Source: Dipteris shenzhenensis
Taxonomy: Eukaryota
Reading direction: 5' to 3' (one strand)
NCBI GenBank assembly: GCA_047967505.1
Contig: CM106538.1
DNA: 64,000 bases
Shown: positions 1,546 through 54,300 of the stretch, one piece after another
How the letters are laid out: every line of letters begins with the position of its first letter
Position numbering within the stretch: the stretch's first letter is position 1
The notes under the pieces: model-generated
What the model saw: only the letters and a program-made list of their open reading frames with translations
Database searches by the model: none
What the model was told of the DNA's origin: nothing
Program-made: the position numbers and the translations under genes

Positions 1546-3858
1546 ATGGCTGGCAACAATCATGATTTATTTGGCATTCTTCATGAAGATGATAAGTTGG
1601 ATGGCACCAAATATCCGATGTGGTCTTATCTCATGAAACATATTCTTGTTGCAAGGCATTTTTGGAACATTGTTTCTGGGGTTGATCTGAGGCCAGCCAA
1701 TGCTACAATGGCTTGCCAGTCCCCCTGTAGAGGCTACTCCTCTTGATGCTTTATCCTCTAGCACCCCTGTTGCTGCTCTTCCAACTTAGGAGCAAACAAG
1801 ATGGGATGCAAGAGATCCAAATGCACATTCCTGTATTGCTTTATCATGCAAGAGAATCATTATTCCACACATCCGGTCATGCAGGATAGCAAAGGATGTT
1901 TGGGACAAATTGGCTTCTCTTTATCAGATTTGCAATGAGGCACGTGCTGCATATTTAAGAAGGCAATTGCAGGAAGTCAACATGAATGAAGGTGACTCTA
2001 TGGATGCATAGTTAACAAAGGTCAAGGACCTCATGGAACAACTTGCCAATATTGATGAAGTGGTGCCCAATTCTCAGCTTCTCAGTACCACATTGAATGG
2101 TTTGCCAGATAGAAATCAAGGGTTCGCTACAACCCTTTGACTAGTGGCCATGGGTAATCCAAACCACAACTGCTTTGATCAGTTAGTCACTTTGCTTTTG
2201 CAGGAAGAGCAAAGTCATGCTAATAGACAAGCTACTATTCCTGATCATGCATTTGCTTCTTAGCAGACAGGAAAAGGCAAGGCTTCCAAGCCTATGGGCA
2301 AGCCTAAATATGCACCTAACGCTGGCAATTCCTCCAATGCATCTCAAAATACAGCTGACAAGTCAAAGAAGAAAAGATGCAACTATTGTCGCAAGCAAGG
2401 GCATGAAAGTTCAGAATGCAGGAAGCGCATTGCTTCGAAGAAAAAGAAAGTAGGATTGACAGTCAATGCCTCACATGCAATTGAATCCCACGAGCCAGCA
2501 GAAGCCTCACATGCACATGCTCTCTAGGATGATTGGGCATGGACTGTCCATTGCTCCTTTGATCCCTCCAAAGTTGATGCATTCTTTACTGTTAATGTTC
2601 TTTTTGTGCCTGGAATTGAAGTCAACTTGATTTCAATTTCAATAATTGCCACTTCAAGTTTTAGAGTGATATTTGATGGATACAGATGCTTAGTATGTGA
2701 TCTTCATGATGACAATGCCATAGTTCTCACTGGCACTTTGCAAAAGCGGCTTTATCACCTTGATCATCACTAAGTTGTACTTTCTATTGAAGCATTTGCG
2801 ATTTTAGATTCACAGCTTGCTGAAACTCATCTTTGGCATGAGAGAATGGGTCATCTCAATTATAGAGCTCTTGCCAAGTTACATTCATAGGGCATGGCAA
2901 ATGATGTACCTCAAACTCACACAATTTCCAAACATGTGTGTGAGGGTTGTATTTTGGGTAAGATGCATCGGTTTCCTTTTCAAAAGAATTGTCCAAAATT
3001 CTCACAAAGGAAATTGCAGCTAGTGCACAGTGATGTCTGTGGCCTAATGAGGACAAATGCCATTAGGGGGTACAAATATTTCATGACTCTAATTGATGAC
3101 TTCACAAGGTATTGCTGGGTATACGCTTTAAAAGCCAAATCTAAAGTGTTCTCATGCTTTCAGAGCTGGCTGAATATGGTTGAGAATGAATCAAGATGGA
3201 AGCAACACAGATAGGGGGGAGAGTATATGTCAAAGGAGTTTGATGCATTTTTGTCTTCACGAGGCATTGTTCACTCATGCACTACTCCTTACACTCCTTA
3301 GCATAATCATGTTCCTGAAAGAAAGAACAGGTGCACTATGGAGATGGCTAGATGCATGCTTAAGGCCAAGTCCTTGCCCAATAAATTTTGGCTTGATGCA
3401 GTGATGTGTGCCAACTATGTGCTGAATAGATCACCTACAAGGGCATTGAGGTCTGTTACACCTTATGAAGCATGGAAACGTAGGAAGCCTTCACTTTCAC
3501 ACATGAGAGTTTTTGGATTTCTTGCATATGTTCATGTACCATCTCAGCTGAGACATAAGCTTGATAATAAGGCAATCAAATGCATACTTATTGGTTACAG
3601 CCAGGCGACAGAGGGTATCGGTTATACCAACCAAGTACTTGGAAGATTATTGTCAGTAGAGATGTAATCTTTACTGAAGATTCAGCTTCTCATCTTATGG
3701 ACTGCAAAGCTAGGCCACAAGTTGACATGTTTGATGCCTTTGACTCTTGGTTACCTCTGCTTCCCTCAGAGGGAGACTTCGACCAGCAACATGAGCTTCC
3801 CCTCCAACAAGCAATGATCAGCCAGCACCCCATGCTGATTTGTAGGTTCCTCTTTTAG
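1546..3858 (+). pseudogene. Degenerate Copia gag-integrase polyprotein
   Basis: ORF fragments 1546, 2294 (CX2CX4HX4C), 2894, 3338 (MARCML..W..AV..ANY..NRSP; KLDNKAIKCILIGY), 3580 (SRDVIFTE), with stops and frameshifts. Confidence 0.9.
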
Positions 3859-3912
3859 CACAAAATGATCCCAATATTCATGATGCAGTGATTGAAGAAA
3901 GAGCTTCTTATA

Positions 3913-4728
3913 GGCTTGGTTTTTTGGTTTTCCACGGGCTTGGGGATTCTCTTTCTAGTTTCCCTTTCCTGTACTCTCTGCTATAGATTTTTGCATTTGT
4001 TTGACTTGTGCTTACACTTGCTTTTGAACTTGCCTCACCAATTTGGCAATAGATTCGTGTTTGGGTAAGTTTTTAGCTTCTCCCATTGCTTGATCCTGTG
4101 CCTCTCTACGCTTAGCGAAGGCATTCTATTTGATCTTACTATTGAGAAGGCTGGTAATCCTAAAATTGTTGATGGCATTTTTAAAATCTCGAACCAACTA
4201 ATTGTGCCATTCCTTGGTAGTGTTTTTCCAAAGGATTTGTGGTGTGTCAAGTAGGTTGAGATCAGTCATCATCAAAGCCAAAATTTCACGAAGGCTAGCC
4301 TCAAAAGTTTGAGGGTAGTCCATGAGCTTTTTCTCTAAATTAGAGACTGTGAGTTTTTGGGCTTCAATAAGCGCATCATGGCATTTCATCCTATACTCAT
4401 TGCATAGGGCTGTCAAAGACTGCTGGATCGCGGTCTGTTTTTCGATCCTTTTGCAAAAGCTCTTAGCCCTGTCTAGTGCTTGGAAGGTCTTTTTGTACTC
4501 TTCAATGGACTTTCTAAGAAAATCCAAGCAATGTGAAGGTAGCTTGTTGATAGCTTCCAAGAAAGTAGTCGGGGTACTCGCAATGGCATCATCTGCATCT
4601 CGACGACGCTTCTGTCAATTTCCAACATTACTGAAGGGGTTATGTGGCACATCTTCACTGACAAAACGAAAGACCTCAAGAGCTCTAGAAGAAGCTCCCT
4701 CGTGGTCGCCTTCCGCTATATTCACCAT
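3913..4728 (-). pseudogene. Second, 3'-truncated copy of PLE ORF1 (coiled-coil protein)
   Basis: Aligns with ~8778-9586; MVNIAEGDHEG start at 4728; RKSIEEYKKTFQALDRAKSF and EAQKLTVSNLEKKL shared. Confidence 0.8.
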
Positions 4729-4736
4729 GATAACAA

Positions 4737-5703
4737 GGTTTAGGTTTTAGAAAAATAAGAAAAGGTGTGTAGTAGTGAAGTGTGAGTGATTGGCTAGCTG
4801 CGGCAGCAAAAAATGAAAAAAATGGAATTTGCGAGGGTCGGTTATGTGGTTAAAACTGTGTCTAAAAAACTATGTGAAGAATGTGCTTGTGAAGTGTGCA
4901 AAGGTGCTTAAAGTGCTAAGAATACATGTGTAAGGTAGAATACTCAAGTATTAAACACAAAACTAAGTAACCAAAAGCTCATGGACAAAAAGATGGCCAG
5001 AAGCACACACTGTACATGAACAAATTGATGTTCAAGTACTAATAAACATCCAAGCAAGCATGAAACAGTACGTGAGCAACAAGTTGCACAAGTACTCACA
5101 CACAAGAGCAATACATGATCAACAAAGTTGCACAAGTACCTCACATAAAGACACAAAGACACAAGAGACAAAAAGAGATAGAAAATCCTCTTTGTATTAC
5201 AAGCGGTGCTTTGTTCTAGCTTTGTTTCGCTTGATATTCTCAAGCTCATCAATGGAATACTTGAAAACTGAGAACACGAATGAGAGAAGCTCCCCCTTTA
5301 TAGTGGGGGGAGGCCACTTTTTGTCCTCTTTTCTTATGGGATTACTATTGGGGCATCGCCACGTGTCAATAGCCCACAAAATCAAAAATTTGATTTCTAG
5401 GGACTGGTTATGTTAGCCCAAAAATAACCCTGAAATGCTCAAAAAATGGTCCAAAAAGAGTGTGAAAAGTCCCAAAATGACAACCCGAGCCTGAGAGGTC
5501 TCATATGCCATAAAGGCGGATGCTCTAGGGGGTGTCTTACAAGGTAGGACGTGCACGGCCTAACTAGACCTAGGCATCTTAAGACGTGATTTGACCAAAA
5601 AAGAGCGAAGGTTTCATGGATTCCTCTAGCAAATGATTGGTCGAGGTAGATGCTGTAGCTCAAGATGTTGTTGGCAAAGTCGATGAAGTTTAGGATTTAG
5701 GGT
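4737..5703 (-). repeat. PLE pseudo-LTR unit 2 (~965 bp)
   Basis: Direct repeat of 5704-6683; bounded by aggtttaggttttag and gtttaggatttaggg. Confidence 0.85.
5205..5260 (-). ncRNA. Degenerate type I hammerhead ribozyme motif (pLTR copy)
   Basis: Minus strand ttcca-tTGATGA-gcttga-gaata-tcaagc-GAAA: perfect 6 bp stem II; first core C and stem III altered. Confidence 0.6.
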
Positions 5704-6683
5704 TCTAGAAAAATAAGAAAAGGTGTGTAGCAGCGAAGTGTGAGTGGTTGGCCAGCTACGGTACCAAAACAGTTGCTATGGCAACAAAAAATTAAAAAAA
5801 TGGAATTTTCGAGGGCCAGTTATGCAGTTATGTGCTTAAAATTGTGTCTAAAAAACTGTGTGAAGAATGTGCTTGTGAAGTGTGCAAAGATGCTTAAAGT
5901 GCTAAACATGAGTAAGGTAGAATACTCAAGTAGTAAACATAAAACTAAGCAACCAAAAGCTCATGGACAAAAAGATGGCCAAGAGCATACACTGTACATG
6001 AACAAATTGATGTTCAAGTACTAATAGACATTTAAGCAAGCACGAAACAGTACATGAGCATCAAGTTGCACAAGCACTCACACATAAGAGCAATACATGA
6101 GCAACAAGGTTGCACAAGTACCTCACACAAAGACACAAAGACACAAGAGAGACAAAAAGAGATAGAAAATCCTCTTTGTATTACAAACGGGTGCTTTGTT
6201 CCAAACTAGTTTTGCTGGATATTCCCAAGCTCATCAATGGAACACCCAAAATGTGAGCATACAAATGAGAGAAGCTCCCCCTTTATAGTGGGGGGAGGCC
6301 ACTGTTTGTCCTCTTTGCTTATGAGATTACTCTTGGGGCATTGCCACGTGTCAATAGCCCATAAAAGCAAAAATTTGATTTTCGGGGACCGGTTATGTTA
6401 GCCCAAAAATAACCCTAAAATGCTAAAAAATGGTCCAAAAAGAGTGCAAAAAGTCCCAAAATGATGACCTGAGCCTAAGGGGTCTCATATGCCATAAAGG
6501 TGGTTGCTCCAGGGGGTGTCTTACAAGGTGGGACCCACACGGCCTAACTAGACCAAGGCATCTTAAGACGTGGTTTGACCAAAAAAGAGCAAAGGTTTCG
6601 TGGATTCCTCCAGCAAATGATTGGTCGAGGTAGATGCTGTAGCTCAGGATGTTGGCAAAGCCGGTGAAGTTTAGGGTTTAGGG
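5704..6683 (-). repeat. PLE pseudo-LTR unit 1 (~980 bp; begins inside the RT C-terminus at (CCCTAAA)2)
   Basis: Direct repeat of 4737-5703 and inverted repeat of 10092-10912. Confidence 0.85.
6189..6247 (-). ncRNA. Degenerate type I hammerhead ribozyme motif (pLTR copy)
   Basis: Minus strand gggtgttcca-tTGATGA-gcttgggaatatccagc-aAAA-ctag-tt-tggaac..caccc; stem I intact, two core transitions. Confidence 0.6.
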
Positions 6684-8320
6684 CGATTCCCAAGTTTAAA
6701 GCTTTCGTGTACTTTGACTAGTCAAGCTTAAGAACAAGGGGGGTCCTTTCACCCACCGAGGCTTGCCTTTTGGAAGATCCTTTAAGTAGAGTCGATCTCA
6801 TCCTGTAGGTGATTTTGTTGAAGCAATTCCGTAGAGTCTTATCTGGGTAACCACGAGATCTAAGGCATTGGTAAAACAAGATTCTAAGCCTCTTGTAGCC
6901 TTCAAACGTGCTTTCCCTGATGACATAGCGACGAAGTTCTCCGATGATGAAAGACTCTTTTTGGTGCTTCAGATGCCAAGAAGAGTAAGGAAGATATTGG
7001 TACCTATTCAACTCTTTTTGGTATTAACTAGAAGAGAGCTTTCCTGTGAAAGAAAAACATGGTCCCTTGAAAAGGTGAATGTCCAGAATATCAACAAAGG
7101 ATGTAGAGTAGCATGGGGTAATTCTAATATGGTCCTGAAAATCTTTTCCATAATCTTCAAGGTATTTGTCCAGATCAGATGAGGATCCCACCCATAAGCC
7201 GAATGCATCATCAATGTAGCGCCTGTAATATAACAGCTCTGAAGGAGGCTGTTTAACTTCCTACATGTTCTCCATGTGACAAAGGAAAAGGCAAGCATAA
7301 ACCACGGCAAAGTTGCTTCCCATAGCTATTCCTATTATCTGATGCTAAAATCTGCCTTCGAATTCTAAATAGCAATTTTTTAAAACCAAAGTGGCAAGAG
7401 ACATGATGAGGTTCAGTTCCATTATCTTGAAGTCATTCCTGATCATCTGCCGCAAGGCTGTAAGACCTTGATCCGTGGGAATACTAGGATATAGAGATTC
7501 CACATCAAAGGTAAAGAGAATGACATCTTTTGGTAAATGCAACTCAGAGATTTCTTTCAGTAGAGTGATAGAGTCCTTGAAATGTTGTTTGTGTCGAAGG
7601 GAATCGGAAAAAGTTCGTGGTGCAACCAAATAGAAGCATGCTCAAATAGAAAACCATTGTAAGAGTAGATTGGTTTGCCTACCAAAGCGGGTTTGTGGAT
7701 CTTCAGGAGGAAGTACAGGGCACAAACTCGAAAACCTGAACTAGGCTTCTGGAGGATGTATCTGACCTCTTCTGACGAAGGGATCTTTGACTCTAAGCAA
7801 ACCTGTTGCAACTGAAAGAATAGCTCCTCTAAGGGAACCTCCTGAATTGGTTCATATACTGCTGCATCTGTCAATTGCCTTTCTCCCTCTTTGACATACT
7901 AAGACTTATCCAAGATGGCTAGACCAAGATTTTTTTCAGCTAGTTTGATCACAATATCTTGGTTATTTTGCAATCTTTTGAGAGCCATTATCAAGGAAAG
8001 AGGAAGGTGGCATTTGGAGAGATTGGAGCAACGGGAGATAGATTCATGGAGAAGTTGTCTGCTGATAATGATAATATCTTCGAGAGGTTGGAAAGTTTCT
8101 CAAGGGTTCCAATTAGGATTGGGTACTCTGAAGAGTGAAGCAGGCCTATCCGGATTGGAGCGATAAAACCATCGAAGGTGCATTTATCTCACAAAACATC
8201 AAAGTCTACGAAAAGCTGAGTTGGTTCTGGAGGAGCGGACAGAGGGATGTAGCCCAAACCTAAACCCAAGAGTTTCTTCTCATGAAAGGAGAGACATATC
8301 TGAGAGAGGTTATGGATCAT
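6544..8320 (-). pseudogene. Penelope-like reverse transcriptase (ORF2), no endonuclease domain
   Basis: MIHNLSQ..EKKLLGLGLGYIP start; IVIKLAEKNLG; KIHKP; FDVESLYPSIP; GIAMGSNFA; YYRRYIDDAF; YLPYSSWH..GELRRY..RGYP; ends PIICWRNPRNLCSFLVKPRL..stop; several stops and frameshifts. Confidence 0.9.
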
Positions 8321-9586
8321 AGTGTTGGAGATACAGCAATCAAACTCAGAAGGAGTTTCCTAGAGAAAAAGAGAAGAGCATAATGTTCTGGATTTAGGAG
8401 AGGGAGCCAAAAGAGCCGCCTTAGCCACGGGTGTTTTGGCCTCTTTCTCGACTTGGTGGAGCAGAGTTGTTGCTTCGTGCACGTGGTCGTTTCTATTGTC
8501 TTCCTGAACCAGATTTCTGGCATTCTGGTTTTTGCATGACGAGGAAGGTTGTGCATGTGAGGGGGTGAAAGGCTTCTATCGAGCTTTGTTCCCCTACTAT
8601 TGTCGGTTTCCCTGCTAGTTTCCCTGTCAGTTTCCTTGCAAGTTTCCCTGTCAGTTTCCTTGTGAGTTTCCTTGCCGGTTTCCGTGCTAGTTCCCTTGCC
8701 GGTTTCCCTTTTGGATTTGAGAACGATTGCCCTAACTGTTTCTCTATCTGTTTCCCTTCCTGTTTTGTCTATTTCCTTGGTTTTTGGTTTTCCACGGGCT
8801 TGGGGATTCTTTTTCTGGTTTCCCTTGCCTGTACTCTCTGGTATAGATTTTTGCATTTGTTTGACTTGTGCTTGCACTTGCTTTTGAACTTGTTGCCTCA
8901 CCAGCTTGGCAATAGATTCCTGTCTGGGCAAGTTTTCAGCTTCTCCCATTGCTTGATCCTGTGCCTCTCTACGCTTGGGGAAGGCATTCTGTCTGATCTT
9001 ACTGTTGAGAAGGATGGTAGTCCTGAAACTGTTGATGGCAATTCTAAAATCTCAAACCAACCGATTGTGCCATTCCTTGGTAGTGTTTTCCCAAAGGATT
9101 TGTGGTGTGTCAAGTAGGTTGAGATTAGTCATCAAAGCCAAAATTTCACGAAGGCTAGCCTCAAAAGTTTGAGGATAGTCCATGAGCTTTTTCTCTAAAT
9201 TAGAGACTGTGAGTTTTTGGGCTTCAATAAGTGCATCATGGCATTTCATCCTATACTCATTGCATAGGGCTATCAAAGACTGCTGCATCGTGGTGTGGGC
9301 TACATCATCTAGCACTAAGAGTTGTGGTGGTTTCAACTTCAGACTATTGGGAATTGCACCTTCTTGCTTCTATTCTTCGAGCCTTTTACAAAAGCTCTTA
9401 GCCCTGTCTAGTGCTTGGAAGATCTTTTTGTACTCTTCAATGGACTTTCTAAGAAAATTGTCTTGACGACAATCGATTTCCAACATTACCAAAGGGGTTG
9501 TGTGGCACATCTTCACTGACAAAATGAAAGACCTCAAGAGAGCTAGAAGAAGCTCCCTCATGGTCACCTTCCATTATATTCACCAT
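8317..9586 (-). pseudogene. PLE ORF1: coiled-coil, basic protein with an 8-aa (24 bp) repeat block
   Basis: ORF pieces 9370-9567, 9052-9336, 8317-8949; Q/K-rich helix VRQQVQKQVQAQVKQ; ETGK/ETDR repeats at ~8600-8710; duplicated at 3913-4728. Confidence 0.75.
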
Positions 9587-9599
9587 GATAACAAGGTTC

Positions 9600-9930
9600 G
9601 GCTAGGTGCGACTGCAAAACAATAGCTGCGGAAGAAAAAAATGGAAAAAATGAAAATTTCGGGGGCCGGTTACGTGCTTAAAACTATGTCTAAAAAACTG
9701 TGAAGAATGTGCTTGTGAAGTGTGCAAAGCTACTTAAAATGCTAAGAATACATGAGTAAGGTATAATACTCAAGTACTAAACACAAAACTAGGAAACCAA
9801 AAGCTCATGGACAAAAAGATGGCCAAGAGCACACGCTATACATGAACAAATTGATGTTCAAGTACTAAACATACAAGCAAGCATGAAACAGTACGAGCAA
9901 TAGGTTGCACAAGTACTCACACACATGAGC
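9600..9930 (-). repeat. Partial pLTR/5' UTR upstream of ORF1
   Basis: Aligns with ~4810-5110 and ~5790-6090. Confidence 0.8.
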
Positions 9931-10421
9931 TATAGTTTTTTGGATCGTCTCTGCAACAAAATCCCCTGCAGGATGAGATCAACTCTACTCGAAGCATCTT
10001 CCAAAAGGCAGGGCTCCGGCGGGTAAAAGGACCCCCCTTGTTCTTAAGCTTGACTACTCAAAGTACACGAAAGCTTTAAACTTGGGGGTCACCCTAAACC
10101 CTAAACTTCACTGCCTTTGCTAACAACATCCTGAGCTACAACATCTACCTCGACCAATCATTTGCTGGAGGAATCCATGAAATCTTTGCTTTTTTTTGGT
10201 CAAATCATAGCTTAAGACACCTAGGTCTAGTTAGGCCGTGCAGATCCCACCTTGTAAGACACCCCTTGGAGCATCCACCTTTATGGCATATGAGACCTCT
10301 CAGGCTTGGGTCATCATTTTGGGACTTTTTACATTGTTTTTGGACTATTTTTGAGAGTTTTAAGGTTATTTTTAGGCTAACATAACCGGTCTCCAGAAAT
10401 CAAAATTTTGATTTTATGGGC

Positions 10422-10496
10422 TATTGACACATGGCGATACCCCAAGAGTAATCCCATAAGCAAAGAGGACAAAAAGTGGCCTCCCCCAACTATAAA
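10422..10496 (+). promoter_or_regulatory. Candidate Pol II promoter in the pLTR (G-box/ABRE-like element plus TATAAA)
   Basis: TATAAA at 10491-10496 is conserved in all three full copies; GACACGTGGC is perfect at 5358-5367 and 6343-6352 (minus strand) and reads gacacatggc here. Confidence 0.5.
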
Positions 10497-10530
10497 GGGG
10501 GAGCTTCTCTCATTTGTATGCTCACATTTT

Positions 10531-10589
10531 GGGTGTTCCACTGATGAACTTGAGAATATCAAGCGAAACTAGTTTGGAACAAAGCACCC
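10531..10589 (+). ncRNA. Minimal type I hammerhead ribozyme (best-preserved copy)
   Basis: gttcca(10535-40)-CTGATGA-a-cttga/gaata/tcaag-c-GAAA-CTAG-TT-tggaac(10575-80); stem I extended by gggtg/caccc across a bulge; palindromic 4 nt stem III. Confidence 0.8.
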
Positions 10590-10896
10590 GTTTGTAATAC
10601 AGAGAGGATTTTCTATCTCTTTTTGTGTCTCTTGTGTCTTTTTGTCTTTGTGTGAGGTACTTGTGCAACTTTATGGCTCATGTATTGCTCTTGTGTGTGA
10701 GTACTTGTGCAATTTTTGCTCATGTACTGTTTAGTAGCACATTCTTCACATAGTTTCTTAGACACAGTTTTAAGCACGTAACCGGCCCTCGAAATTTCCA
10801 TTTTTTTATTTTTTGTTGCTGCGGCTACTGTTTTGCTGCCGCAACTGGCCAATCACTCACACTTCACTGCTACATACACACCTTTTCTTATTTTTC

Positions 10897-10963
10897 TAAA
10901 ACCCTAAACCCTGCCTGCAAATTGGTTTAGGGTTAGGGTTAGGGTCATGGTCAAGGTTTAGGG
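10897..10963. repeat. Short interstitial telomeric repeats in opposite orientations
   Basis: CCCTAAACCCT (10902-10912), spacer, TTTAGGG TTAGGG TTAGGG (10926-10944), TTTAGGG (10957-10963). Confidence 0.8.
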
Positions 10964-13096
10964 TAGACAGAAGAAGAGATGCCAATCTTTTAAGTTTCTT
11001 GCAAGAGATTTTGTTTAGTGCATTGGTGTCTGATTAGCAAATGTGAAGTTTGCTACGGTCTTGTGGACTTCTTGAGGCACATTGTCAATATTAACAATTT
11101 TTGTTTGTGCCTTGAGGAGAGCCATGACAGCATCGCCAAGTTGATGAGGTAAACTATAGAGATAATGGCGTTTGGCAGAAGTGTCAGAAAAAAGACCAGC
11201 TCTATAAATTAGCTACTATACATAAGCGTTATAGGCCTCTAGCTAGAAAAGATCACAAAGTTATAGAGCAGAATACAATTGGATGCCTATGTATGATCAT
11301 CAGTGAATGTCGGCAGAAATTGATTAGAGATTGCCGCAATCAAGGCATCAAGAGCATTGGGTTGGTGATTACCATCAACATTGGAAAAGATTTACTCTTT
11401 TGATTCGTCAAAAAGGAATTCCCACCAATTGCCGAGTACACCAGTGAAGCCTTTGGTAGTCTCGACTGCAGCATCACGTGGATTCCATCTGTGCACTATG
11501 ACTAGAGACATCATGTGACCATAAAATATTTTTAGAAGATCCTTCATTGCCTGAGGAGAGGTAGCATCAATATTAAGGATATAACCCAAAAAGGATTTGT
11601 GCTGCAAGCATCGCTGCAAATCACGTTGCTCGTCGAGATCACCGTGCATGAAATGAGTTTGGAATTCGGCGCGCATGAACTGGGAGTCAGGGGTATCATG
11701 AAAAGCCATACGACGTCCACGCCATGGTTGCTGCTATTGATGTTGTTGTTGCTATGGAGCCGAATCTTCATCCATTGGCTCAACCTTCGCTCCTTGATTC
11801 ATGTAAAGTGTCGAGAGATCAATGGAGGATGAAGTATCAGATCTGGGAGAAGCAGGTGGTGATTGTGGAGGGAGCTGAGGAGGTGGCAAGGGCATGGGAT
11901 CAACAGGTTGCGAAGGACCAGGGACTGCTTTGAAAGGATCACGTGAGTCAATATTGGCAAAATGGGTAGGATTAGTCCATTCGCATCGGTGGCCCTAGTG
12001 CCAAGTATTATCATACAAGTGGGAGGATTGATGGCAATAGTTTGTATGATGATGTGTCGGGATATTGACGGCAATAGTGTGCTTGTACTATGATGAGTAG
12101 CATCGGTAGGTAGGCGAGTAGCACTTTTGGAGGACATCCAGTCATGAATGGCGTCAGCCTTTTCAGGCGACAGACTTTGAGCAGAGGTAGTTGCTTCAAA
12201 TGTTGAGTCAGGGACGTCATCAGGAGCACATGGTATGGAAACATGGGAGGAAGATGGAAAAGAAAGACGCATCACTCTTTTCCCATGGTCACGATGAGGG
12301 CGAAGCTTGATGATAGACTTGGAGGGAGCATCCTCAATCTGGAATGTAGGAAGTTGAGAAAAAGCTTCCTCAAGAACAATCTGGTAATCCATTTCCCATT
12401 CAACAGGCATGGGAAGAGCATCAAACTTGAAGCGAGTAACATCTGCATTAGTTTTTCCATAAAGAATGCACTCATCTTTTGTGTTGACATGACGGGAAAT
12501 ATGATTGATAGTGGATACTAAATAGTTGATAGACTTGACATGAATTGCACAATACCTAGGATGGGGTTTCATAGAGAGACCCTTGACCTGGACATAAAGA
12601 CGAAGTATAGTAGAAAGATGCAGATTTGCTAAGGACATCTTAAAGTTCGGATATACAATTGTATGGATAGGTTCACGGTTAAGGTTACCATGAATAAGAC
12701 CAATTCTAGCATCTTTGAGATGAAGATGACGGGTAACTACAAGACTAGCCATACATGTGGCATTTACACCCATACGGAATAATGGTTCTATAGCTAAGAC
12801 GAAACAACCATAGTGTATGTACTGGTATCCTAAGTCCTGAAAAGCATCAATCTCATGGGGAGTAAACAGAGGAAGATATACACCAGTGGATCCTTCGTCA
12901 TAGCAATATTAACAACCACTTTAGCAATTTTAATATGCTTGAGAGCACGAAAGTGGAAAGCAGAGAACTTATAGATATTTTCAGGGTTGATAATCAGCAT
13001 GTTCCAATCAGTCTTGGGATCAATAATTTTAGAGGAAGAAGAAGCAGCATGGGTAGAGGTGAAGCGGGAAGAGAAAGATCACATTGCAATAGCCAT
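10964..13096 (-). pseudogene. Second viral copy: 30K-type movement protein plus N-terminal coat protein (truncated)
   Basis: Aligns with ~22180-24782; YIHYGCFVLAIEPLF, GLIHGNL..VYPNF; GFTGVLGNWW; lacks ~0.5 kb present in copy 1. Confidence 0.85.
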
Positions 13097-29818: not shown

Positions 29819-31107
29819 TGTTGTCTCTATGCCAACATGGACATAGGTAGTACAGAATGTGTGTGTAGAGTAGCAGCAAAGCTCTGCTTGTACTTGCATA
29901 AGGCTAGAAATAATCCCTCTTAGAAATCCAACTTGCATGTTCTACATGCAAGTTCTACATACGATTCCTACATGCAACTCCTACATGCAACTCCTACATG
30001 CAACTCCTACATGCGAGTTCTACATGCAACTTCTACATGCGAGTCCTACATGCGAGTTCTACATGCAACTTCTACATGCGAGTCCTACATGCAACTCTTA
30101 CATGCGAGTTCTACATGCAACTCCTACATGCAACATGCAACTCCTACATGCAACTTGCAACTTCTACATGCAACTTCCATATGCAAGTTCTACATGCAGA
30201 GAGAGAATGTCTTACAATTCCTACATGCAGAAAGAGAAGCTCTCCAACTTGTATAAATACCCCATAGTGGAATAAAGCCCACACTCTTTGGAACATTGTG
30301 TTGAGTTGTACTTTGGTCTCAAGTGTCCATGCTTCCTTGCACTCCACATCCAAAGGCATGTCCTAACCTTGCAACTCCTCCTCCCCTCTCCTCCAACCTT
30401 GCAATTCATCCTCTCTTCCTCCTCCTTCCTCCTCCTCCCTTCTCCTCCTCCCTTCTTCTCTCCCTCTTCCCTCCTCCTCCTCCTCCTTCCTCCTCCTCCC
30501 TTCTCCTCCTCCCTTCTTCTCTCCCTCCTCCCTCCTCCTCCTCCTCCTCCTCCCTCCTCTCTCTTCTTTCTCCCATGCTCTTACACCTTCTTCCTCTCCC
30601 ACTCCTATGCTCTCCCTAAACCCTTAGTTCCTCAACCCTTAACCTCCATGATCTACGAGGGAGACGAGTTCTCCACCATGTACTCTACCCTGAACGTTGG
30701 ATCCTCCTTCTAACCCTAGAACCTCTTCTAAACTCTAGAACCTCTCTCTAAACCTTGGAATCTCCCTCTAACCCTTGAAACCTCCTTCTAAACCTTGGAA
30801 CCTCCTTCTAAACTCTGGAACCTCCTTCTAACCCTTAAACTCCTCCTAAACCCTGCAACCTCTAATGAAGGTGAAAGCCTTCATTACCTCAACCATGATG
30901 ATACAAGTTCCTTTTACATATGCATACACTATGTTTACTCACCACACTTAAGCCTACATCTCTCACCAGAATATGACTCAAGGTCCTAAGCTACATGTAT
31001 ATTACAAATGACAAACCCAATATATCTATAGGTGATAAAAAGCCTCGAAATCCTGCATACTAAGAATACCATGCTCTTCCTACGGAAGCCATGGGAAAGA
31101 GCAAACA
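29819..31107 (+). repeat. 5' LTR with internal 13-14 bp CATGCAACTCCTA array, CCT microsatellite and ~21 bp AACCCT-containing repeats
   Basis: TGTTG..AAACA ends; homologous to 40102-41299 and (reverse) 51399-52460; TATAAATA at ~30252. Confidence 0.9.
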
Positions 31108-40101: not shown

Positions 40102-41299
40102 TGTTGTCTCTGTGCCAACATGGACTTAGGTAGTACAAAATGTGTGTGTAGAGTAGCGGCAAAGCTCCGCTTGTACTTGCACAAGGCTAGAAATAATCCC
40201 TCTTAGAAATCCAACTTGCATGTTCTACATGCAAGTTCTACATACGATTCCTACATGCAACTCCTACATGCAAGTCCTACATGCAACTCCTACATGCAAG
40301 TCCTACATGCAACTCCTACATACAAGTTCTACATGCAACTCCTACATGCAAGTTCTACATGCAACTCCTACATGCGACTACATGCGAGTTCTACATGCAA
40401 CTCCTACATGCACCATGCAACTCCTACATGCAACTTGCAACTTCTACATGCAACTTCTAAATGCAAGTCCTACATGTAGAGAGAGAATGTCTTACAATTC
40501 CTACATGCAAAGAGAGAAGTTGTCCAACTTGTATAAATACCCCATAATGGAATGAAGCCCACACTCTTTGGGGCATTGTGTTGAGTTTTATTTTGGTATT
40601 CCAAGCAATTGCCTCAAGTGTCCATGCTTCCTTGCACTCCACATCCAAAAGCATGTCCTAACCTTGCAACTCCTCCTCCCCTCTCTTCCAACCTTGCAAT
40701 CCATCCTCTCTTCCTCCTCCTCCCTCCTCCTCCTCCCTCCTCCTCCTCCCTCCTTCTCTCCCTCCTCCCTCCTCCTCCTCCTCCTCCTCCTCCTCCTCCC
40801 TCCTTCTCTCCCTCCTCCCTCCTCCTCCTCCTTCTCTCCCTCCTCCCTCCTCCTCCTCCCTCCTCTCTCTTCTTTCCCCCATGCTCTTACACCTTCTTCC
40901 TCTGCCACTCCTATGCTCTCCCTAAACCCTTAGTTCCTCAATCCTTAACCTCCATGATCTATGAGGGAGACAAGTTCTCCACCATGTACTCTACCCTGAA
41001 CCTTGGATCCTCCTTCTAAACCTAGAACCTCTTCTAAACTCTAGAACCTCTCTCTAAACCTTGGAATCTCCTTCTAACCCTTGAAACCTCCTTCTAAACC
41101 TTGGAGCCTCCTTCTAAACTCTGGAACCTCCTTCTAACCCTTAAACTCCTCCTAAACCCTGCAACCTCCAATGAAGGCGAAAGCCTCAACCATGATGATA
41201 CATGTTCCTTTTACACATGCTTACACTATGTTTGCTCACCACACTTAAGCCTACATCTCCCATCGGAATACAACTCGAGGTCCTAAGCTACACGTATAC
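40102..41299 (+). repeat. 3' LTR of element A (3'-truncated)
   Basis: Starts tgttgtctc; homology to the 5' LTR stops after gtatact. Confidence 0.9.
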
Positions 41300-51398: not shown

Positions 51399-54300
51399 TG
51401 TTGGCTCTTTCCCATGGCTTCCACAGGAAGAGCAGAGTATTCTCAGTATGCAGGGTTCCGAGGCTTTTTGTCACCTAAAGATATATCAGGGTTGTCGTTT
51501 GTAGTATACGTGTAGCTTAGGACCTTGAGTTGTATATTGGTGAGAGACATAGGCTTAAGTGTGGTGAGCAAACATAGTGTATGCATGTGTAAAAGGAACG
51601 TGTATCATCATGGTTGAGGTAATGAAGGCTTTCGCCTTCATTGGAGGTTGCAAGGTTTAGAAGGAGTTTAAGGGTTAGAAGGAGGTTCCCGAGTTTAGAA
51701 AGAGGTTCCAAGGTTTAGAAGGAGGTTTCAAGGGTTAGAAGGAGATTCCAAGGTTTAGAGAGAGGTTCCAGAGTTTAGAAGAGGTTCTAGGGTTAGAAGG
51801 AGGATCCAAGGTTCAGGGTAGAGTATATGGTGGAGAACTTGTCTCCCTCGTAAATCATGGAGGTTAAGGGTTGAGGAACTAAGGGTTTAGGGAGAGCATA
51901 GGAGTGGGAGAGGAAGAAGGTGTAAGAGCATGGGAGAAAGAAGAGAGAGGAGGGAGGAGGAGAAGGGAGGAGGAGGAGGAGGAGGGAGGAGGAGAAGGGA
52001 GGAGGGAGGAGGAGGAGGAGAGGATGGATTGCCAGGTTGGAGGAGAGGGGAGGAGGAGTTACAAGGTTAGGACATGCTTTTGGACTTGGAGTGCAAGGAA
52101 GCATGGACACTTGAGACAATTGCTTGGAATACCAAAGTAGAACTCAACACAATGCCCCAAAGAGTGTGGGCTTCATTCCATTATGGGGTATTTATACAAG
52201 TTGGAGAGCTTCTCTCTCTGCATGTAGGAATTGTAAGACATTCTCTACAAGTTGCAAGTTACATGTGGGAGTTGCATGTTGCATGTAGGAGTTGCATGTA
52301 GAACTCACACGTAGAACTTGCATGTAGAACTTGCATGTAGGAGTTGCATGTAGGAATCGTATGTAGAACTTGCATGTATTTCTAGCCTTATGCAAGTACA
52401 AGCGGAGCTTTGCCGCTACTCTACACACACATTTTGTACTACCTAAGTCCATGTTCGCACTCCCGAATCCATTTGATTACCCATCCTCGAGTTATGGCTT
52501 ATTTTGATTTCGAAGTTGGGATGCCATGTGCGTAACGCAGTGGCTGTTGAGCTTGCCATGTGCCGGTCATTGTGCTATAATGCTTTTGCACCATACCATT
52601 TGTGGTTTGTAGTCAGGAAGCTAATCTCCTCCTAAGGAGGGGTAGACGACTGTGAATTTTAGAGGGGATCTCATTGTTGAGGCTACGGACTCTGCCATCG
52701 AATCTTCTTGGAAAGAGGTTTGGCGGGGGTCTCGTTGTTGAGGTTGGTATTTCTTGCTATCTTGCATACATGTTGGATGCGATTGCACCCGTATCATTGA
52801 GCTTGTAGATAAGTTTGTATGCAAATCTAATATTTTTACATTTAGGAGACGGCTGTGATGTTTGGTGGGGGTCTCGTTGCTGAGGCTACATACTCTTTTG
52901 CCAATTCATCTTTATATTTGGCATAGCTTCTTGTCCTGGTTTTGAATTCATTGCATGCTTTGAGAGTATGGAATGAAAGTGTGTGATACTATTATTGATG
53001 CAATCTATTATGTGCCTATGCAAAATTGTGTGAGTGCACGTGATGTGTCGATTAACTATATGCTTATTTGTGGGATTTAATAGGGAAACTAAGACTAAAT
53101 CATCCCTAAAATTTGATTAGGTCTTCCTAAATGTGCAAAAACGTGCATATGCCAGTGAGTGTGCGTGTAACAATCTAGTGCAAACTATATGTGCAAAAAC
53201 GTGCATATGCTAGTGAGTGCGCTTGTAACAATCTAGTGCAAACTATTGAAGACTTGGGGTTCCCAAAACTTCATTATTGTCAGGGATGGCTTGCGTGTTG
53301 ATGTTGTATCGCTTCAATCGAGTCCCGTTTATGGTTGTGTTGAATTGGACTCCATCCAATGCTCATCCAATGTTTCTAGCAGCACAACTCCGATGGGATT
53401 CATCTTTCTTACTCGGTAGGGTCCTTGACCTAGATACTTCAGTTTCCACTTGTGTACTTTGGCCTTGTATAACAAGACCAAGTCACCTTCCTTGATGTCT
53501 TTAGCTTTAAGATTTCTGTCAAAGCATGCCTTTCTTCTGCGTTTTTCTATTGTCATGGCATGGTAGGCGACTAGTCTTGTCACTGCTATACGTAGGCTTG
53601 GTATTACAAATTCTAGTGGGACCACAGCTTCAAGGCTGTACACCAATTGAAAAGGTGTGTTCCCTGTACTAACCTTGAGTGTGGTTCTGTATGCCCATAA
53701 GGCTGCATTCAATTTCTCTGCCCAATCAGAACGCTATGGTTCTACTACCTTGGTGAGGATAATGCATAATATTTTATTGGTGGATTCGGCCTGTCCATTC
53801 CCTTGGGGGTCACTAGTAGGGTGTGCTTTTTCTATGGATTATCATAAAGCCAGACAAGAGTTCTTGGATTACCTCATTGACAAAATGTGTGCCTCTATCC
53901 GACACAATTTCAATGGGGCATCCGAATCGGGTGATCACATTTTCGTATAAGAATCTTGTTGTGCTTCTGGCATATGCCTTTCTGACTGCTTTAGCTTCAG
54001 CCCATTTTGTAAAGTAATTAGTGGCCACAATGATGTAGCATGCCTGTGTTCCCTTTTTGCTGGATGGATGGGACCCACATAGTCAATCCCCCATTTTTCA
54101 AATGGTTTTTGTGCAACAATTGTTGTTAGGGGATTGAAGTCTTTGTGTTGTGGTTTAGTAGTCCGTTGGCATACATCACACCTTTTACATATTCATAGGC
54201 ATCTGCCCACAGTGTTGGCCACCAATAGCCTGCAAGGAGGACTTTTCTTGGTGTGGCTTCCCCTTGGAAGTGTCCTCCTGCAATGCCATCATGAACTTCA

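Follow-up and report, generated by a model that had tools for sequence, protein, structure and literature searches.

A telomere-complementary stretch within the reverse transcriptase coding frame of decayed Penelope-like elements in Dipteris shenzhenensis

Layout of the locus and identity of its elements

The window, meaning the whole stretch of 64,000 nucleotides that we analyzed from Dipteris shenzhenensis (assembly GCA_047967505.1, contig CM106538.1), holds at 3915-10913 a set of decayed Penelope-like elements (PLEs) without an endonuclease, a land-plant element of the Athena/Coprina type. Four decayed units, X, A, ‘mid’ and B, form a head-to-tail chain with minus-strand sense, and one inverted fragment, copy C, completes the set (Table 1). 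All window copies are decayed, and they differ from one another by 8-17% in sequence. The order within a unit is ORF1, the reverse transcriptase (RT) ORF, a tail of ~0.85-1 kb that includes a hammerhead ribozyme, and a terminal stretch of telomere C-strand (CCCTAAACCCT), here called T2. The ORF1 ATG lies ~10 nt past the end of the preceding unit in the window and in the related loci L002 and L005; copy A, for example, begins with TTGTTATCATGG at 9594-9583 and has its ATG ~10 nt in. L005 is intact and has two ORFs, with the ORF1 stop at 368 and the RT ORF start at 446.

Table 1. Coordinates of the PLE units and their features in the window
Feature	Position	Strand	Evidence
Copy B, limited to 5′ end and ORF1-like region; similarity ends at 3915	3915..4736	-	blastn
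T2 of ‘mid’, CCTAAACC, followed directly by the copy B 5′ end	4737..4744	-	
Unit ‘mid’, 5′-truncated, tail only (T1 to 3′ end); upstream pseudo-LTR of copy B	4745..5688	-	
Junction motif CCCTAAATCCTAAA: T2 of copy A and T1 of truncated ‘mid’ in one 14-nt stretch	5689..5702	-	
Copy A, ORF end and 3′ tail down to ...TTCTAGAA	5703..6669	-	
Copy A hammerhead remnant, core mutated (TTGATGAG ... CAAAAC)	6200..6237	-	
Copy A decayed RT ORF, PLE type, no GIY-YIG domain	6544..8415	-	tblastn, homologues
T1, in-frame CCCTAAACCCTAAA, read (A)LNPK	6670..6683	-	sequence and nucleotide conservation
Copy A 5′ end and decayed ORF1-like region	8415..9594	-	5′ end matches copy B, L002/L005
Unit X, 3′ part of tail; upstream pseudo-LTR of copy A	9615..9920	-	blastn of element against window, alignment
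Copy C, inverted: last 140 nt of RT coding before T1, T1 at 10092-10105, tail	9951..10901	+	
Copy C hammerhead, intact core (CTGATGA ... CGAAAC TAGT T)	10541..10575	+	
T2 of copy C, CCCTAAACCCT	10902..10912	+	
Degenerate G-strand telomere repeats (TTTAGGG TTAGGG TTAGGG ... TTTAGGG)	10926..10965	+	

The chain has been rearranged. The 5′ side of unit X was cut at 9920-9951 by a head-to-head join with copy C, and the alignment shows a ~60 nt deletion at the X|A junction, where the T2 of X was lost. The array does not lie at the end of the window: its flanks, both non-telomeric, extend for ~53 kb and 3.9 kb. The tract of G-strand repeats, oriented oppositely to the T2 of copy C and starting 12 nt past it, may mark a former chromosome end.

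The minus-strand RT frame carries the motifs FDVESLY, GIAMGS, YIDD and LPYSSWH, also reads the internal motif T1, and ends with TAG at 6546-6544. An earlier, sequence-only reading had proposed that this ORF runs through a telomeric repeat as far as 6544, and the homologues agree with it; their alignments reach query residue 355-362 of 365, ending 3-10 residues from the stop. Copy A has four in-frame stops between 7641 and 6547, and a frameshift farther upstream breaks the reading. The TAG on the minus strand at 6718-6720 had been called only apparent. It corresponds to TAC (Y) in the inverted copy, at 10055-10057 (LKLDYSKY), and homologues have Y or F at this position; therefore, the stop is a decay mutation.

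The RT query (P0001) matched 10564 proteins at E ≤ 1e-3 and 341 at E ≤ 1e-30, and tblastn with P0152 against copy A covered residues 1-618. The homologues have in common the motifs FDVESLYPSIP, GTAMGS, YIDD, YQYLPxxSWHP and ICWRNPRNL..LV. Judged from its sequence, the enzyme is of the PLE/TERT-related type, with a thumb and a C-terminal linker. The RT ORF ends ~13 codons past the ICWRNPRNL..LV linker, which is the point at which intact homologues (555-626 aa) end as well. The GIY-YIG domain (PF01541) is absent from close homologues and appeared only in matches of ≤36% identity, these more distant matches resembling endonuclease-containing PLEs. A Pfam search of the ORF pieces and intact homologues returned nothing above cut-off; the precomputed accessions are PF28514 and PF26215. 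A Selaginella protein of 45% identity is among the homologues. No relative was found in the viral contigs searched, and the genome contigs gave two distant matches (26-29% identity) in bacterial bins, which we left aside.

The copy C hammerhead is the only strict core match in the 64 kb. Besides the remnant in copy A, a decayed hammerhead with a mutated core lies in ‘mid’ at ~5252-5215. An alignment of 22 sequences, 21 of them from related loci, shows an invariant core, a palindromic ACNNGT helix III and compensatory changes in five of the seven predicted pairs. Of 76 related loci, 40 carry the ribozyme in sense orientation and one in antisense. Rfam (E ≤ 10, 3500-11500) reported no hammerhead, a blank that we set aside because the motif was found by core match and alignment. 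Short reverse-complement telomeric repeats are present at the 3′ end of the window elements: apart from the T2 of copy C and of ‘mid’, one lies within 5702-5689. C-strand telomere dimers occur on the sense strand in 41/76 related loci and G-strand dimers in 3/76. The hammerhead and T2 are separated by 327 nt in copy C (10575 to 10902), by ~500 nt in copy A and by ~100-1300 nt in relatives.

A telomere-like motif in the coding frame

The plus strand reads TTTAGGGTTTAGGG at 6670-6683, two perfect heptamers that the minus strand translates as A/T-L-N-P-K (gcc cta aac cct aaa in the A-L-N-P-K form first noted, correctly, from the sequence), ~45 codons before the RT ORF stop. We refer to this stretch as T1. 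With at most one mismatch, the 14-mer occurs three times in the 64 kb (5689-5702, 6670-6683 and 10092-10105), compared with a mean of 0.03 in shuffled sequences and no shuffle out of 100 that reached three. The 11-mer core, at the same tolerance, has 11 occurrences in the window against 1.17 expected. Unrelated CT-rich repeats elsewhere in the window account for six of these 11.

Two other ways of reading the region were considered and rejected. All three window copies have, past T1, a second open frame (TLNF...WTIF) of 84-95 codons, but homologues follow the RT frame, and by our own reading this alternative closes after ~20 codons in the related loci L005 and L064. We also rejected T1 as the 3′ terminus of a shorter element, since 45 conserved C-terminal codons lie beyond it.

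The sequence-only reading had called for a test of constraint at the synonymous sites of the T1 codons, and both codon spelling and alignment revealed such constraint, far exceeding the demands of the protein. We aligned the window codon by codon with two distant relatives at ~54% nucleotide identity (525 nt, of which 38.9% are the same in all three). No stretch of eight or more bases is invariant across these lineages except the 15 nt of T1. Each pairwise comparison likewise has its longest run of identity there, at 15-17 nt, the next longest being 11-12. L005 and L064, which are both of the LNPK relatives with readable DNA, spell CTA AAC CCT AAA. Under each lineage's own codon usage, the probability of the T1 spelling is 0.016 (window), 0.0028 (L005) and 0.011 (L064), and conserved leucines have the same codon in only 12-28% of pairs. 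On this evidence, T1 is evidently kept at the nucleotide level and is not a chance coding artefact.

LNP stands at the T1 position in 17 of 140 aligned homologues, and 16 of these fall within one clade of 35 (SH-aLRT 99) that includes a basal Selaginella protein, in a protein tree built by a quick search with SH-aLRT support. As far as the aligned sequences tell, LNP looks ancestral to the plant clade (Selaginella, Ginkgo, Cryptomeria) and seems to have been lost about four times. T1 itself is evidently old, with occurrences in Selaginella-, Ginkgo- and Cryptomeria-type relatives. At the T1 position, 64 of 66 related loci have a telomere match of ≤9 nt, and many are in telomeric head-to-tail arrays. 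The nearest DNA relatives (L054, L058 and L061) read ACC CTA ATT CCT, followed in L058 and L061 by (CCCTAAA)n arrays. Arrays can therefore be built without T1. The further expectation that relatives would carry their own host's telomere motif at this site failed in this sample, with 19 mainly CCCTAA-flanked loci having ≤6 nt of CCCTAA there. Instead of selection for priming, the conservation of T1 could reflect a different role of the nucleic acid, or T1 may have been copied anew from T2 or the telomere time and again.

The T2/T1 junction and its possible origins

Unit ‘mid’ begins exactly at the motif, as had been read from the sequence, though at 5689-5702 rather than 5688-5704 and with one mismatch (TTTAGGATTTAGGG). 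It is indeed fused there to the telomere-like 3′ end of the previous unit, with ~12 nt in common. Upstream of the junction lies that 3′ end (...TTATTTTTCTAGAA), and downstream the sequence that follows the internal motif (CTTCATCGAC...). The tail end of copy A runs through CTAGAA+CCCTAAA(T)CCT, and the post-T1 sequence begins in the same bases, with no extra repeats between them. In tblastn with a full-length homologue, ‘mid’ matches over 5700->5581 and only from residue 579 (LNP...) onward. Copy B shows the canonical unit boundary, T2 followed by TTGTTATCATGG, and L002 and L005 have a comparable one, which makes the A|mid junction the exception.

This T2/T1 junction occurs once in the window. 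The other 5′-truncated copy, C, starts 140 nt upstream of T1 at a rearrangement junction, and the start of the tail upstream of copy A is unreadable because rearrangement has cut it. The tails of A and ‘mid’ are only 87% identical (blastn), so nothing ties both to one event. In the short contigs of relatives, telomeric tracts lie at fixed unit boundaries, and no clear variable 5′ truncations were scorable.

The sequence-only reading proposed that the same bases code for protein and serve as a template-switch or priming site. The first half stands, as the codons for TLNPK are at the same time a telomere C-strand motif; the second half, in which switching or priming would make the join, fits but has a single junction to draw on. 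We put its chance at a little under even, and consider that it best explains the junction. The steps that we infer are these. T2 in the RNA would pair with the G-rich telomeric overhang and prime reverse transcription, as in other endonuclease-less PLEs. Since ORF1 starts right after T2, the promoter would lie in the preceding tail, and so templates would be longer than one unit. The cDNA could then run back into the upstream unit, where at T1 its 3′ end would read ...TTTAGGGTTTAGGG, a ready telomere seed. A cDNA stopping at this point would leave a chromosome end needing no healing: telomerase might extend it, or it might pair directly with T2 in the next RNA to arrive. The outcome would be tail-T-tail joins such as 5702-5689, with an upstream pseudo-LTR that starts at T1.

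Recombination after insertion would yield a product identical to the junction that we see. The chain may once have read A - T2 - full-length unit - T2 - B, from which ~2.9 kb (the 5′ end, ORF1 and most of the RT) would have been lost when the T2 of A and the next T1 underwent unequal exchange or a microhomology-mediated deletion, leaving the tail joined at the common 12-14 nt. T1 would then matter for the junction only as a patch of DNA homology. The copies are old and rearranged, as the deletion at X|A that took T2, the inversion at 9920-9951 and the divergence among copies attest; T1 and T2 are also the only telomere-like patches in each unit, so any exchange between such patches must land there. 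A homology patch of 12-14 nt is short, however, and recombination leaves unexplained why T1 is the most conserved coding nucleotide stretch in three lineages. We consider this account unlikely, although it has a real share of the probability.

The nucleotide-level conservation of T1 would be expected if it were a DNA or RNA signal for the tail promoter, and its confinement to a plant-associated clade fits such a role. T1 contains AAACCCTAA, a putative plant ‘telobox’. Transcripts starting at or near T1 would give cDNA beginning there, and thus a pseudo-LTR start without a template switch; the position of the ORF1 ATG past T2 in the window, L002 and L005 does mean that transcription must start in the preceding unit. 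A start at T1 would, however, lie inside the RT coding sequence and upstream of the hammerhead, whose cleavage would remove T1 from the transcript, and relatives without T1 keep the same unit layout. A regulatory role or an RNA start at T1 seems to us distinctly improbable. Least probable, at only a slight chance, is coincidence, in which TLNPK is kept for the protein, common ancestry or chance accounts for its codons, and ‘mid’ was by accident truncated at T1 before telomerase capped it. There is only a single junction, the locus was chosen for its striking look, and the L of LNP is a conserved hydrophobic position across the wider family. Yet NP is freely replaced in relatives (TLIPS, TLAQL, ALVRN, MLENL), and uniform truncation would land within the 14-nt motif ±2 nt of a 3.9-kb unit in ~0.5% of cases by our own rough estimate. 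Coincidence is already disfavoured by the codon spelling, at 0.003-0.016 per lineage, and by the three-way identity.

Returning to the priming proposal, we can extend it to the clade as a whole, in a form that we think rather doubtful. A telomere-complementary stretch of 11-15 nt, older than the lycophyte/seed-plant split if it was inherited vertically, would have been kept in the RT coding sequence of the plant clade for a use of the nucleic acid as such: the cDNA stop would act as a self-capping G-strand seed, prime the next element on its terminal C-strand, set the pseudo-LTR start and build chains. In its boldest form, T1 and T2 together would resemble a telomerase template within the mRNA of a TERT relative.

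The locus holds a known kind of element with a conserved dual-use motif that is undescribed in the literature searched and for which priming or template switching is a proposed mechanism. Pseudo-LTR formation by PLEs and chromosome-end extension by those without an endonuclease are still largely inferred, and an in vitro system for PLEs first became available in 2024 (PMC11167929). If codons double as a telomere-pairing site, they would offer a concrete, mutable handle, as synonymous changes in T1 should alter junctions and leave the protein as it is. The finding bears on the proposed link between PLEs and the origin of telomerase. It also bears on where telomere-associated retroelements occur: a recent review regards them as rare in plants, but here they have gymnosperm relatives.

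Comparison with known systems

The template of telomerase RNA spans ~1.5 telomere repeats, pairs with the 3′ end of the G-strand and is read by TERT, an RT related to that of the window element. T1 differs in lying in the coding region of an mRNA, and nothing in the locus points to its repeated copying.

Endonuclease-deficient PLEs of the Coprina and Athena clades were reportedly described by Gladyshev and Arkhipova in 2007. According to the portions of the sources available (PMC8557442, PMC6431247, PMC13159263, PMC12477314), they are like the window element in having a PLE-type RT without GIY-YIG, a 3′ reverse-complement telomeric stretch and a hammerhead in the terminal repeat, and in forming head-to-tail chains in which truncated copies are joined via short telomeric repeats. 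The window element differs in its second telomere-complementary stretch, which lies in the RT coding frame and is conserved in nucleotides; no mention of such a stretch was found in the literature searched, partly available as excerpts, and the original descriptions of the Selaginella elements may contain it. It differs further, as far as the excerpts go, in that T2 follows the hammerhead at 327 to ~500 nt and does not adjoin it, and also in that the locus is not at a visible chromosome end and has relatives in seed plants (Cryptomeria, Ginkgo). The accessible part of a 2025 review (PMC12477314) names Selaginella as the only plant example, and that of PMC13159263 describes Coprina Sm1/Sm2 in Selaginella. 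A single ORF would distinguish Coprina from Athena, which has two, but a Coprina with two ORFs is on record (PMC13159263); L005 has two, and decay has obscured the count in the window copies. The only pointer to Coprina here is the Selaginella protein of 45% identity.

The Terminons of bdelloid rotifers are said to have been described by Arkhipova and colleagues in 2017. Going by the summary of PMC6431247, they resemble the window element in their 3′ C-rich stretch with a hammerhead, their long chains and their 5′ truncation by telomeric repeats. In contrast to the window element, they are giant (up to 40 kb), carry many extra ORFs and have the telomeric stretch immediately downstream of the ribozyme, an adjacency that T2 in the window does not show; the same summary mentions no internal coding telomere motif.

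Finally, Poseidon of Anolis (PAc) is a canonical PLE with an endonuclease. Like the window element, it forms tandem units and has a hammerhead, in its case near the boundary of repeat and ORF; it makes multi-copy RNA from a pseudo-LTR promoter and starts reverse transcription at a defined internal RNA site, as we propose for the window element too (PMC11167929). The target of PAc is AT-rich DNA, which is cleaved by the GIY-YIG nuclease that the element encodes and shares no homology with the start site (PMC11167929), whereas the window element has no nuclease and its presumed pairing sites are complementary to the telomere.

A telomere motif in the RT frame

The window's decayed, endonuclease-less Penelope-like element (PLE) carries a telomere C-strand motif, T1, within its RT coding frame. 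The motif is TTTAGGGTTTAGGG at 6670-6683 on the plus strand and CCCTAAACCCTAAA on the minus strand, where gcc cta aac cct aaa reads A-L-N-P-K in the same frame as the RT motifs FDVESLY, GIAMGS, YIDD and LPYSSWH. The sequence-only reading, which had reported perfect in-frame heptamers here, was correct. Allowing one mismatch, the 14-mer has three matches in the window (5689-5702, 6670-6683 and 10092-10105), a count reached in 0 of 100 shuffles (mean 0.03). Its 11-nt core CCCTAAACCCT is found 11 times at the same tolerance (1.17 expected), five times in the PLE and six in unrelated CT-rich repeats. At most about 2.7 repeats fit in the frame, read directly from the sequence, because a third heptamer gives CCC TAA, a stop.

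The CT-rich repeats (30500-30900, 40900-41200, 51800-51980 and ~44882) combine telomere-like 11-mers with tandem units of ~20 nt (acctccttctaaaccttgga). Two pairs, 30614/30844 and 40920/41150, share a 230-nt spacing, lie 10.3 kb apart and could represent the terminal repeats of a different element.

We searched the translated RT (7641->6547, X at four in-frame stops) against 1.84 billion representative proteins, obtaining 10564 matches at E<=1e-3, 4023 at E<=1e-10 and 341 at E<=1e-30. The best alignments run past T1 to query residue 355-362 of 365, the homologues end within a few residues of there, and the family's conserved C-terminal linker (LHRLCQHPELQHLPRPIICWRNPRNL..LV) lies past T1; the frame passes through the motif, as had been proposed. 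At 6718-6720 the TAG is a decay mutation: the inverted copy has TAC there (10055-10057, LKLDYSKY), and homologues have Y or F. The ORF terminates at 6546-6544, so both the apparent stop and the extension to 6544 had been read correctly. No GIY-YIG domain follows this stop; among the 120 matches listed, PF01541 (GIY-YIG) occurs only on proteins with at most 36% identity, and Cryptomeria japonica, Ginkgo (Gb_02531) and Selaginella moellendorffii are the only named organisms among close relatives (45-54% identity). In all three copies, a second frame that begins inside T1 (TLNF...WTIF) continues unbroken for 84-95 codons, beyond the end of the RT ORF. In the related loci L005 and L064 this frame is closed, so it is probably a chance feature of closely related copies.

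Unit layout in the window and in relatives

All PLE family sequence of the 64 kb lies within 3915-10913. At 9920-9951, X, the truncated tail upstream of copy A, is joined head to head with copy C, itself truncated at its 5' end. L064 resembles this join: inverted tail copies, with arms at 2369-2793 and 3717-3946, lie beside a truncated element. Relative to the mid/B junction, the X/A junction (9595-9615) lacks ~60 nt of tail end, including T2, the telomere C-strand stretch that ends each unit. Degenerate G-strand repeats (TTTAGGG TTAGGG TTAGGG TCATGG TCAAGG TTTAGGG) begin 12 nt past the T2 of copy C in opposite orientation, and the two form a short telomere palindrome (10902-10965), possibly a fold-back or a chromosome end healed long ago. 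At 998-1437 the window also holds a 220-nt unit in two tandem copies, 92% identical.

Coordinates of PLE units, junctions and telomere-like matches in the window
Feature	Position	Strand	Remark
X	9920->9615	minus	tail fragment
Copy A 5' end	9594-9583	minus	TTGTTATCATGG; then ORF1-like region
Copy A RT coding	8415 to 6547	minus	
Copy A T1	6683-6670	minus	
Copy A tail	ends at 5703	minus	end ...TTCTAGAA
A/'mid' junction	5702-5689	minus	14 nt, CCCTAAATCCTAAA
'mid'	5688->4745	minus	starts with sequence that normally comes after T1, to own end
T2 of 'mid'	4744-4737	minus	CCTAAACC
Copy B	4736->3915	minus	5' end TTGTTATCATGG and ORF1 region
Copy C	9951-10901	plus	final 140 nt of RT coding before T1, then T1, tail
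Copy C T1	10092-10105	plus	
Copy C T2	10902-10912	plus	terminal CCCTAAACCCT
Second frame TLNF...WTIF	6423-6677	minus	
Second frame TLNF...WTIF	5439-5696	minus	
Second frame TLNF...WTIF	10098-10385	plus	
Non-element CCCTAAACCCT matches	~30.6, 30.8, 40.9, 41.2, 44.9, 51.9 kb		CT-rich repeats

The window has a single match to the strict hammerhead core CTGANGA...GAAAC, at 10541-10575 in copy C; the cores of copy A (6237) and 'mid' (5252) are point-mutated. An alignment with hammerheads of 21 related loci shows no variation in the catalytic core, a covarying 6-nt palindrome as helix III (ACTAGT, ACATGT, ACCGGT, ACGCGT), and compensatory changes in five of the seven pairs predicted for helices I and II. 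Rfam did not report the hammerhead at E<=10; the type is known from PLEs, according to a passage of PMC4209133.

A scan of metagenome contigs for encoded relatives yielded 76 related loci. C-strand telomere dimers lie on the sense strand in 41 of them and G-strand dimers in three, and the hammerhead signature CGAAACnnGT is on the sense strand in 40 versus the antisense strand in one. The layout that recurs runs from the ORF end to the hammerhead (+250-1100 nt), the telomeric tract (+100-1300 nt) and the next unit; the tracts lie at fixed unit boundaries and vary in repeat number. In L002 and L005, the next unit opens with sequence resembling TTGTTATCATGG of the window and has its ORF1 ATG ~10 nt past T2.

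Apparently intact, L005 (1-3389) combines two ORFs (Q-rich ORF1, then RT) with an intact hammerhead at 2530, but its only T2 is degenerate (AGCCCTAATC); its contig continues into the next unit's ORF1, and it is therefore a tandem unit or a read-through transcript. L010, L011, L039, L040 and other ERZ loci carry CCCTAA-type and CCCTAAA-type tracts on the same contigs (CCCTAA upstream and CCCTAAA downstream in L010). They also have a short (CCCTAA)2 whose position is fixed, 609 nt ahead of the RT match; elsewhere in the clade, then, there are internal telomere-like stretches. In L007, a 5'-truncated copy of a T1-less relative (515-760) starts ~45 nt upstream of the T1-equivalent site and adjoins G-strand telomere repeats (TTAGGGTTTAGGGTTTA) on the sense strand, the reverse of the usual orientation.

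Conservation of T1

LNP occupies the T1-homologous position in 17 of 140 alignable homologues (TLNPK, TLNPT, SLNPE and similar). A quick maximum-likelihood tree of 47 proteins places 16 of these in a single 35-row clade (SH-aLRT 99) that includes the basal Selaginella protein; among the 19 LNP-less rows of this clade, 14 form one nested group. In all, the label changes six times, most simply read on this tree as one gain, about four losses and one uncertain long branch.

DNA is readable for two LNPK relatives only, and both have telomere codons at the site (TTC CTA AAC CCT AAA in L005, ACC CTA AAC CCT AAA in L064). Given each lineage's own codon usage, the telomere spelling of LNPK has a probability of 0.016 (window), 0.0028 (L005) or 0.011 (L064), and only 12-28% of pairs share the same codon at conserved leucines. 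In a protein-guided codon alignment of the three (525 nt, 38.9% of columns identical in all), CCTAAACCCTAAACT is the sole run of at least eight bases identical in all three lineages, exceeds the run at the YIDD catalytic motif, and is the longest identical run of every pair (15-17 nt, next longest 11-12). This alignment is the clearest evidence that T1 is conserved at the nucleotide level.

The telomere match at this position is at most 9 nt in 64 of 66 related loci, including the nearest DNA relatives L054, L058 and L061 (AAA ACC CTA ATT CCT); (CCCTAAA)n arrays follow in L058 and L061 despite the short match. The 19 loci with mainly CCCTAA flanking dimers have at most 6 nt of CCCTAA there, so the expectation that relatives carry the host's motif at T1 fails in this sample.

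Junction formation and comparison with known elements

Each unit has two telomere-complementary stretches, and the canonical unit boundary is T2|TTGTTATCATGG. At 5702-5689, T1 and T2 overlap exactly with no extra repeats, which upholds the earlier description of a unit beginning at T1, fused to the preceding unit's telomere-like end. We tentatively favor a mechanism that we rate a little below an even chance, plausible on the basis of this one junction. T2 would pair with the telomeric overhang and prime cDNA synthesis. Since ORF1 lies directly past T2, the promoter would be in the preceding tail and RNA templates would span more than one unit. A cDNA reaching the upstream T1 would end TTTAGGGTTTAGGG-3', an end that could seed a telomere or anneal to the T2 of a following RNA; the outcome would be a tail-T-tail join and a pseudo-LTR, the upstream tail copy preceding a unit, starting at T1.

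The window offers this mechanism one scorable junction, at T1; copy A's upstream tail and copy C's start are both cut by the inversion, copy C reaches 140 nt beyond T1, and the copy A and 'mid' tails are 87% identical and therefore cannot be assigned to one event. Recombination in DNA between T2 and T1, later than insertion, would be a less likely source of the same junction. We give still less weight to T1 being kept as a promoter or RNA-start signal where RNAs begin, although T1 contains AAACCCTAA, which we take to be the plant telobox. Coincidence we judge very improbable. T1 could also have been kept perfect by repeated re-copying from T2 or telomeres, without selection on priming. For the dual use of T1 in coding and priming, as the sequence-only reading had it, nucleotide conservation and the T1/T2 overlap speak in favor, and the single junction and the lack of a T1 match in nearly all related loci speak against; its observation is confirmed and its interpretation partly supported.

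The layout of the window and its relatives matches the published picture of endonuclease-less PLEs, with the difference that T2 does not adjoin the ribozyme, lying 327 nt after it in copy C. By most tested features the element is such a PLE, of the Athena/Coprina type, and it works like one. The literature searched, whose scope excluded the PNAS 2007 and MBE 2017 primary papers, describes no telomere motif internal to a coding sequence. Two things are new relative to that literature, a telomere stretch that is in frame and conserved in its nucleotides, and the fact that it coincides with a unit junction; we regard the element as a known kind with a conserved dual-use motif undescribed there. 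Selaginella is the only plant example given in a 2025 review (PMC12477314), whereas the relatives found here extend to gymnosperms.
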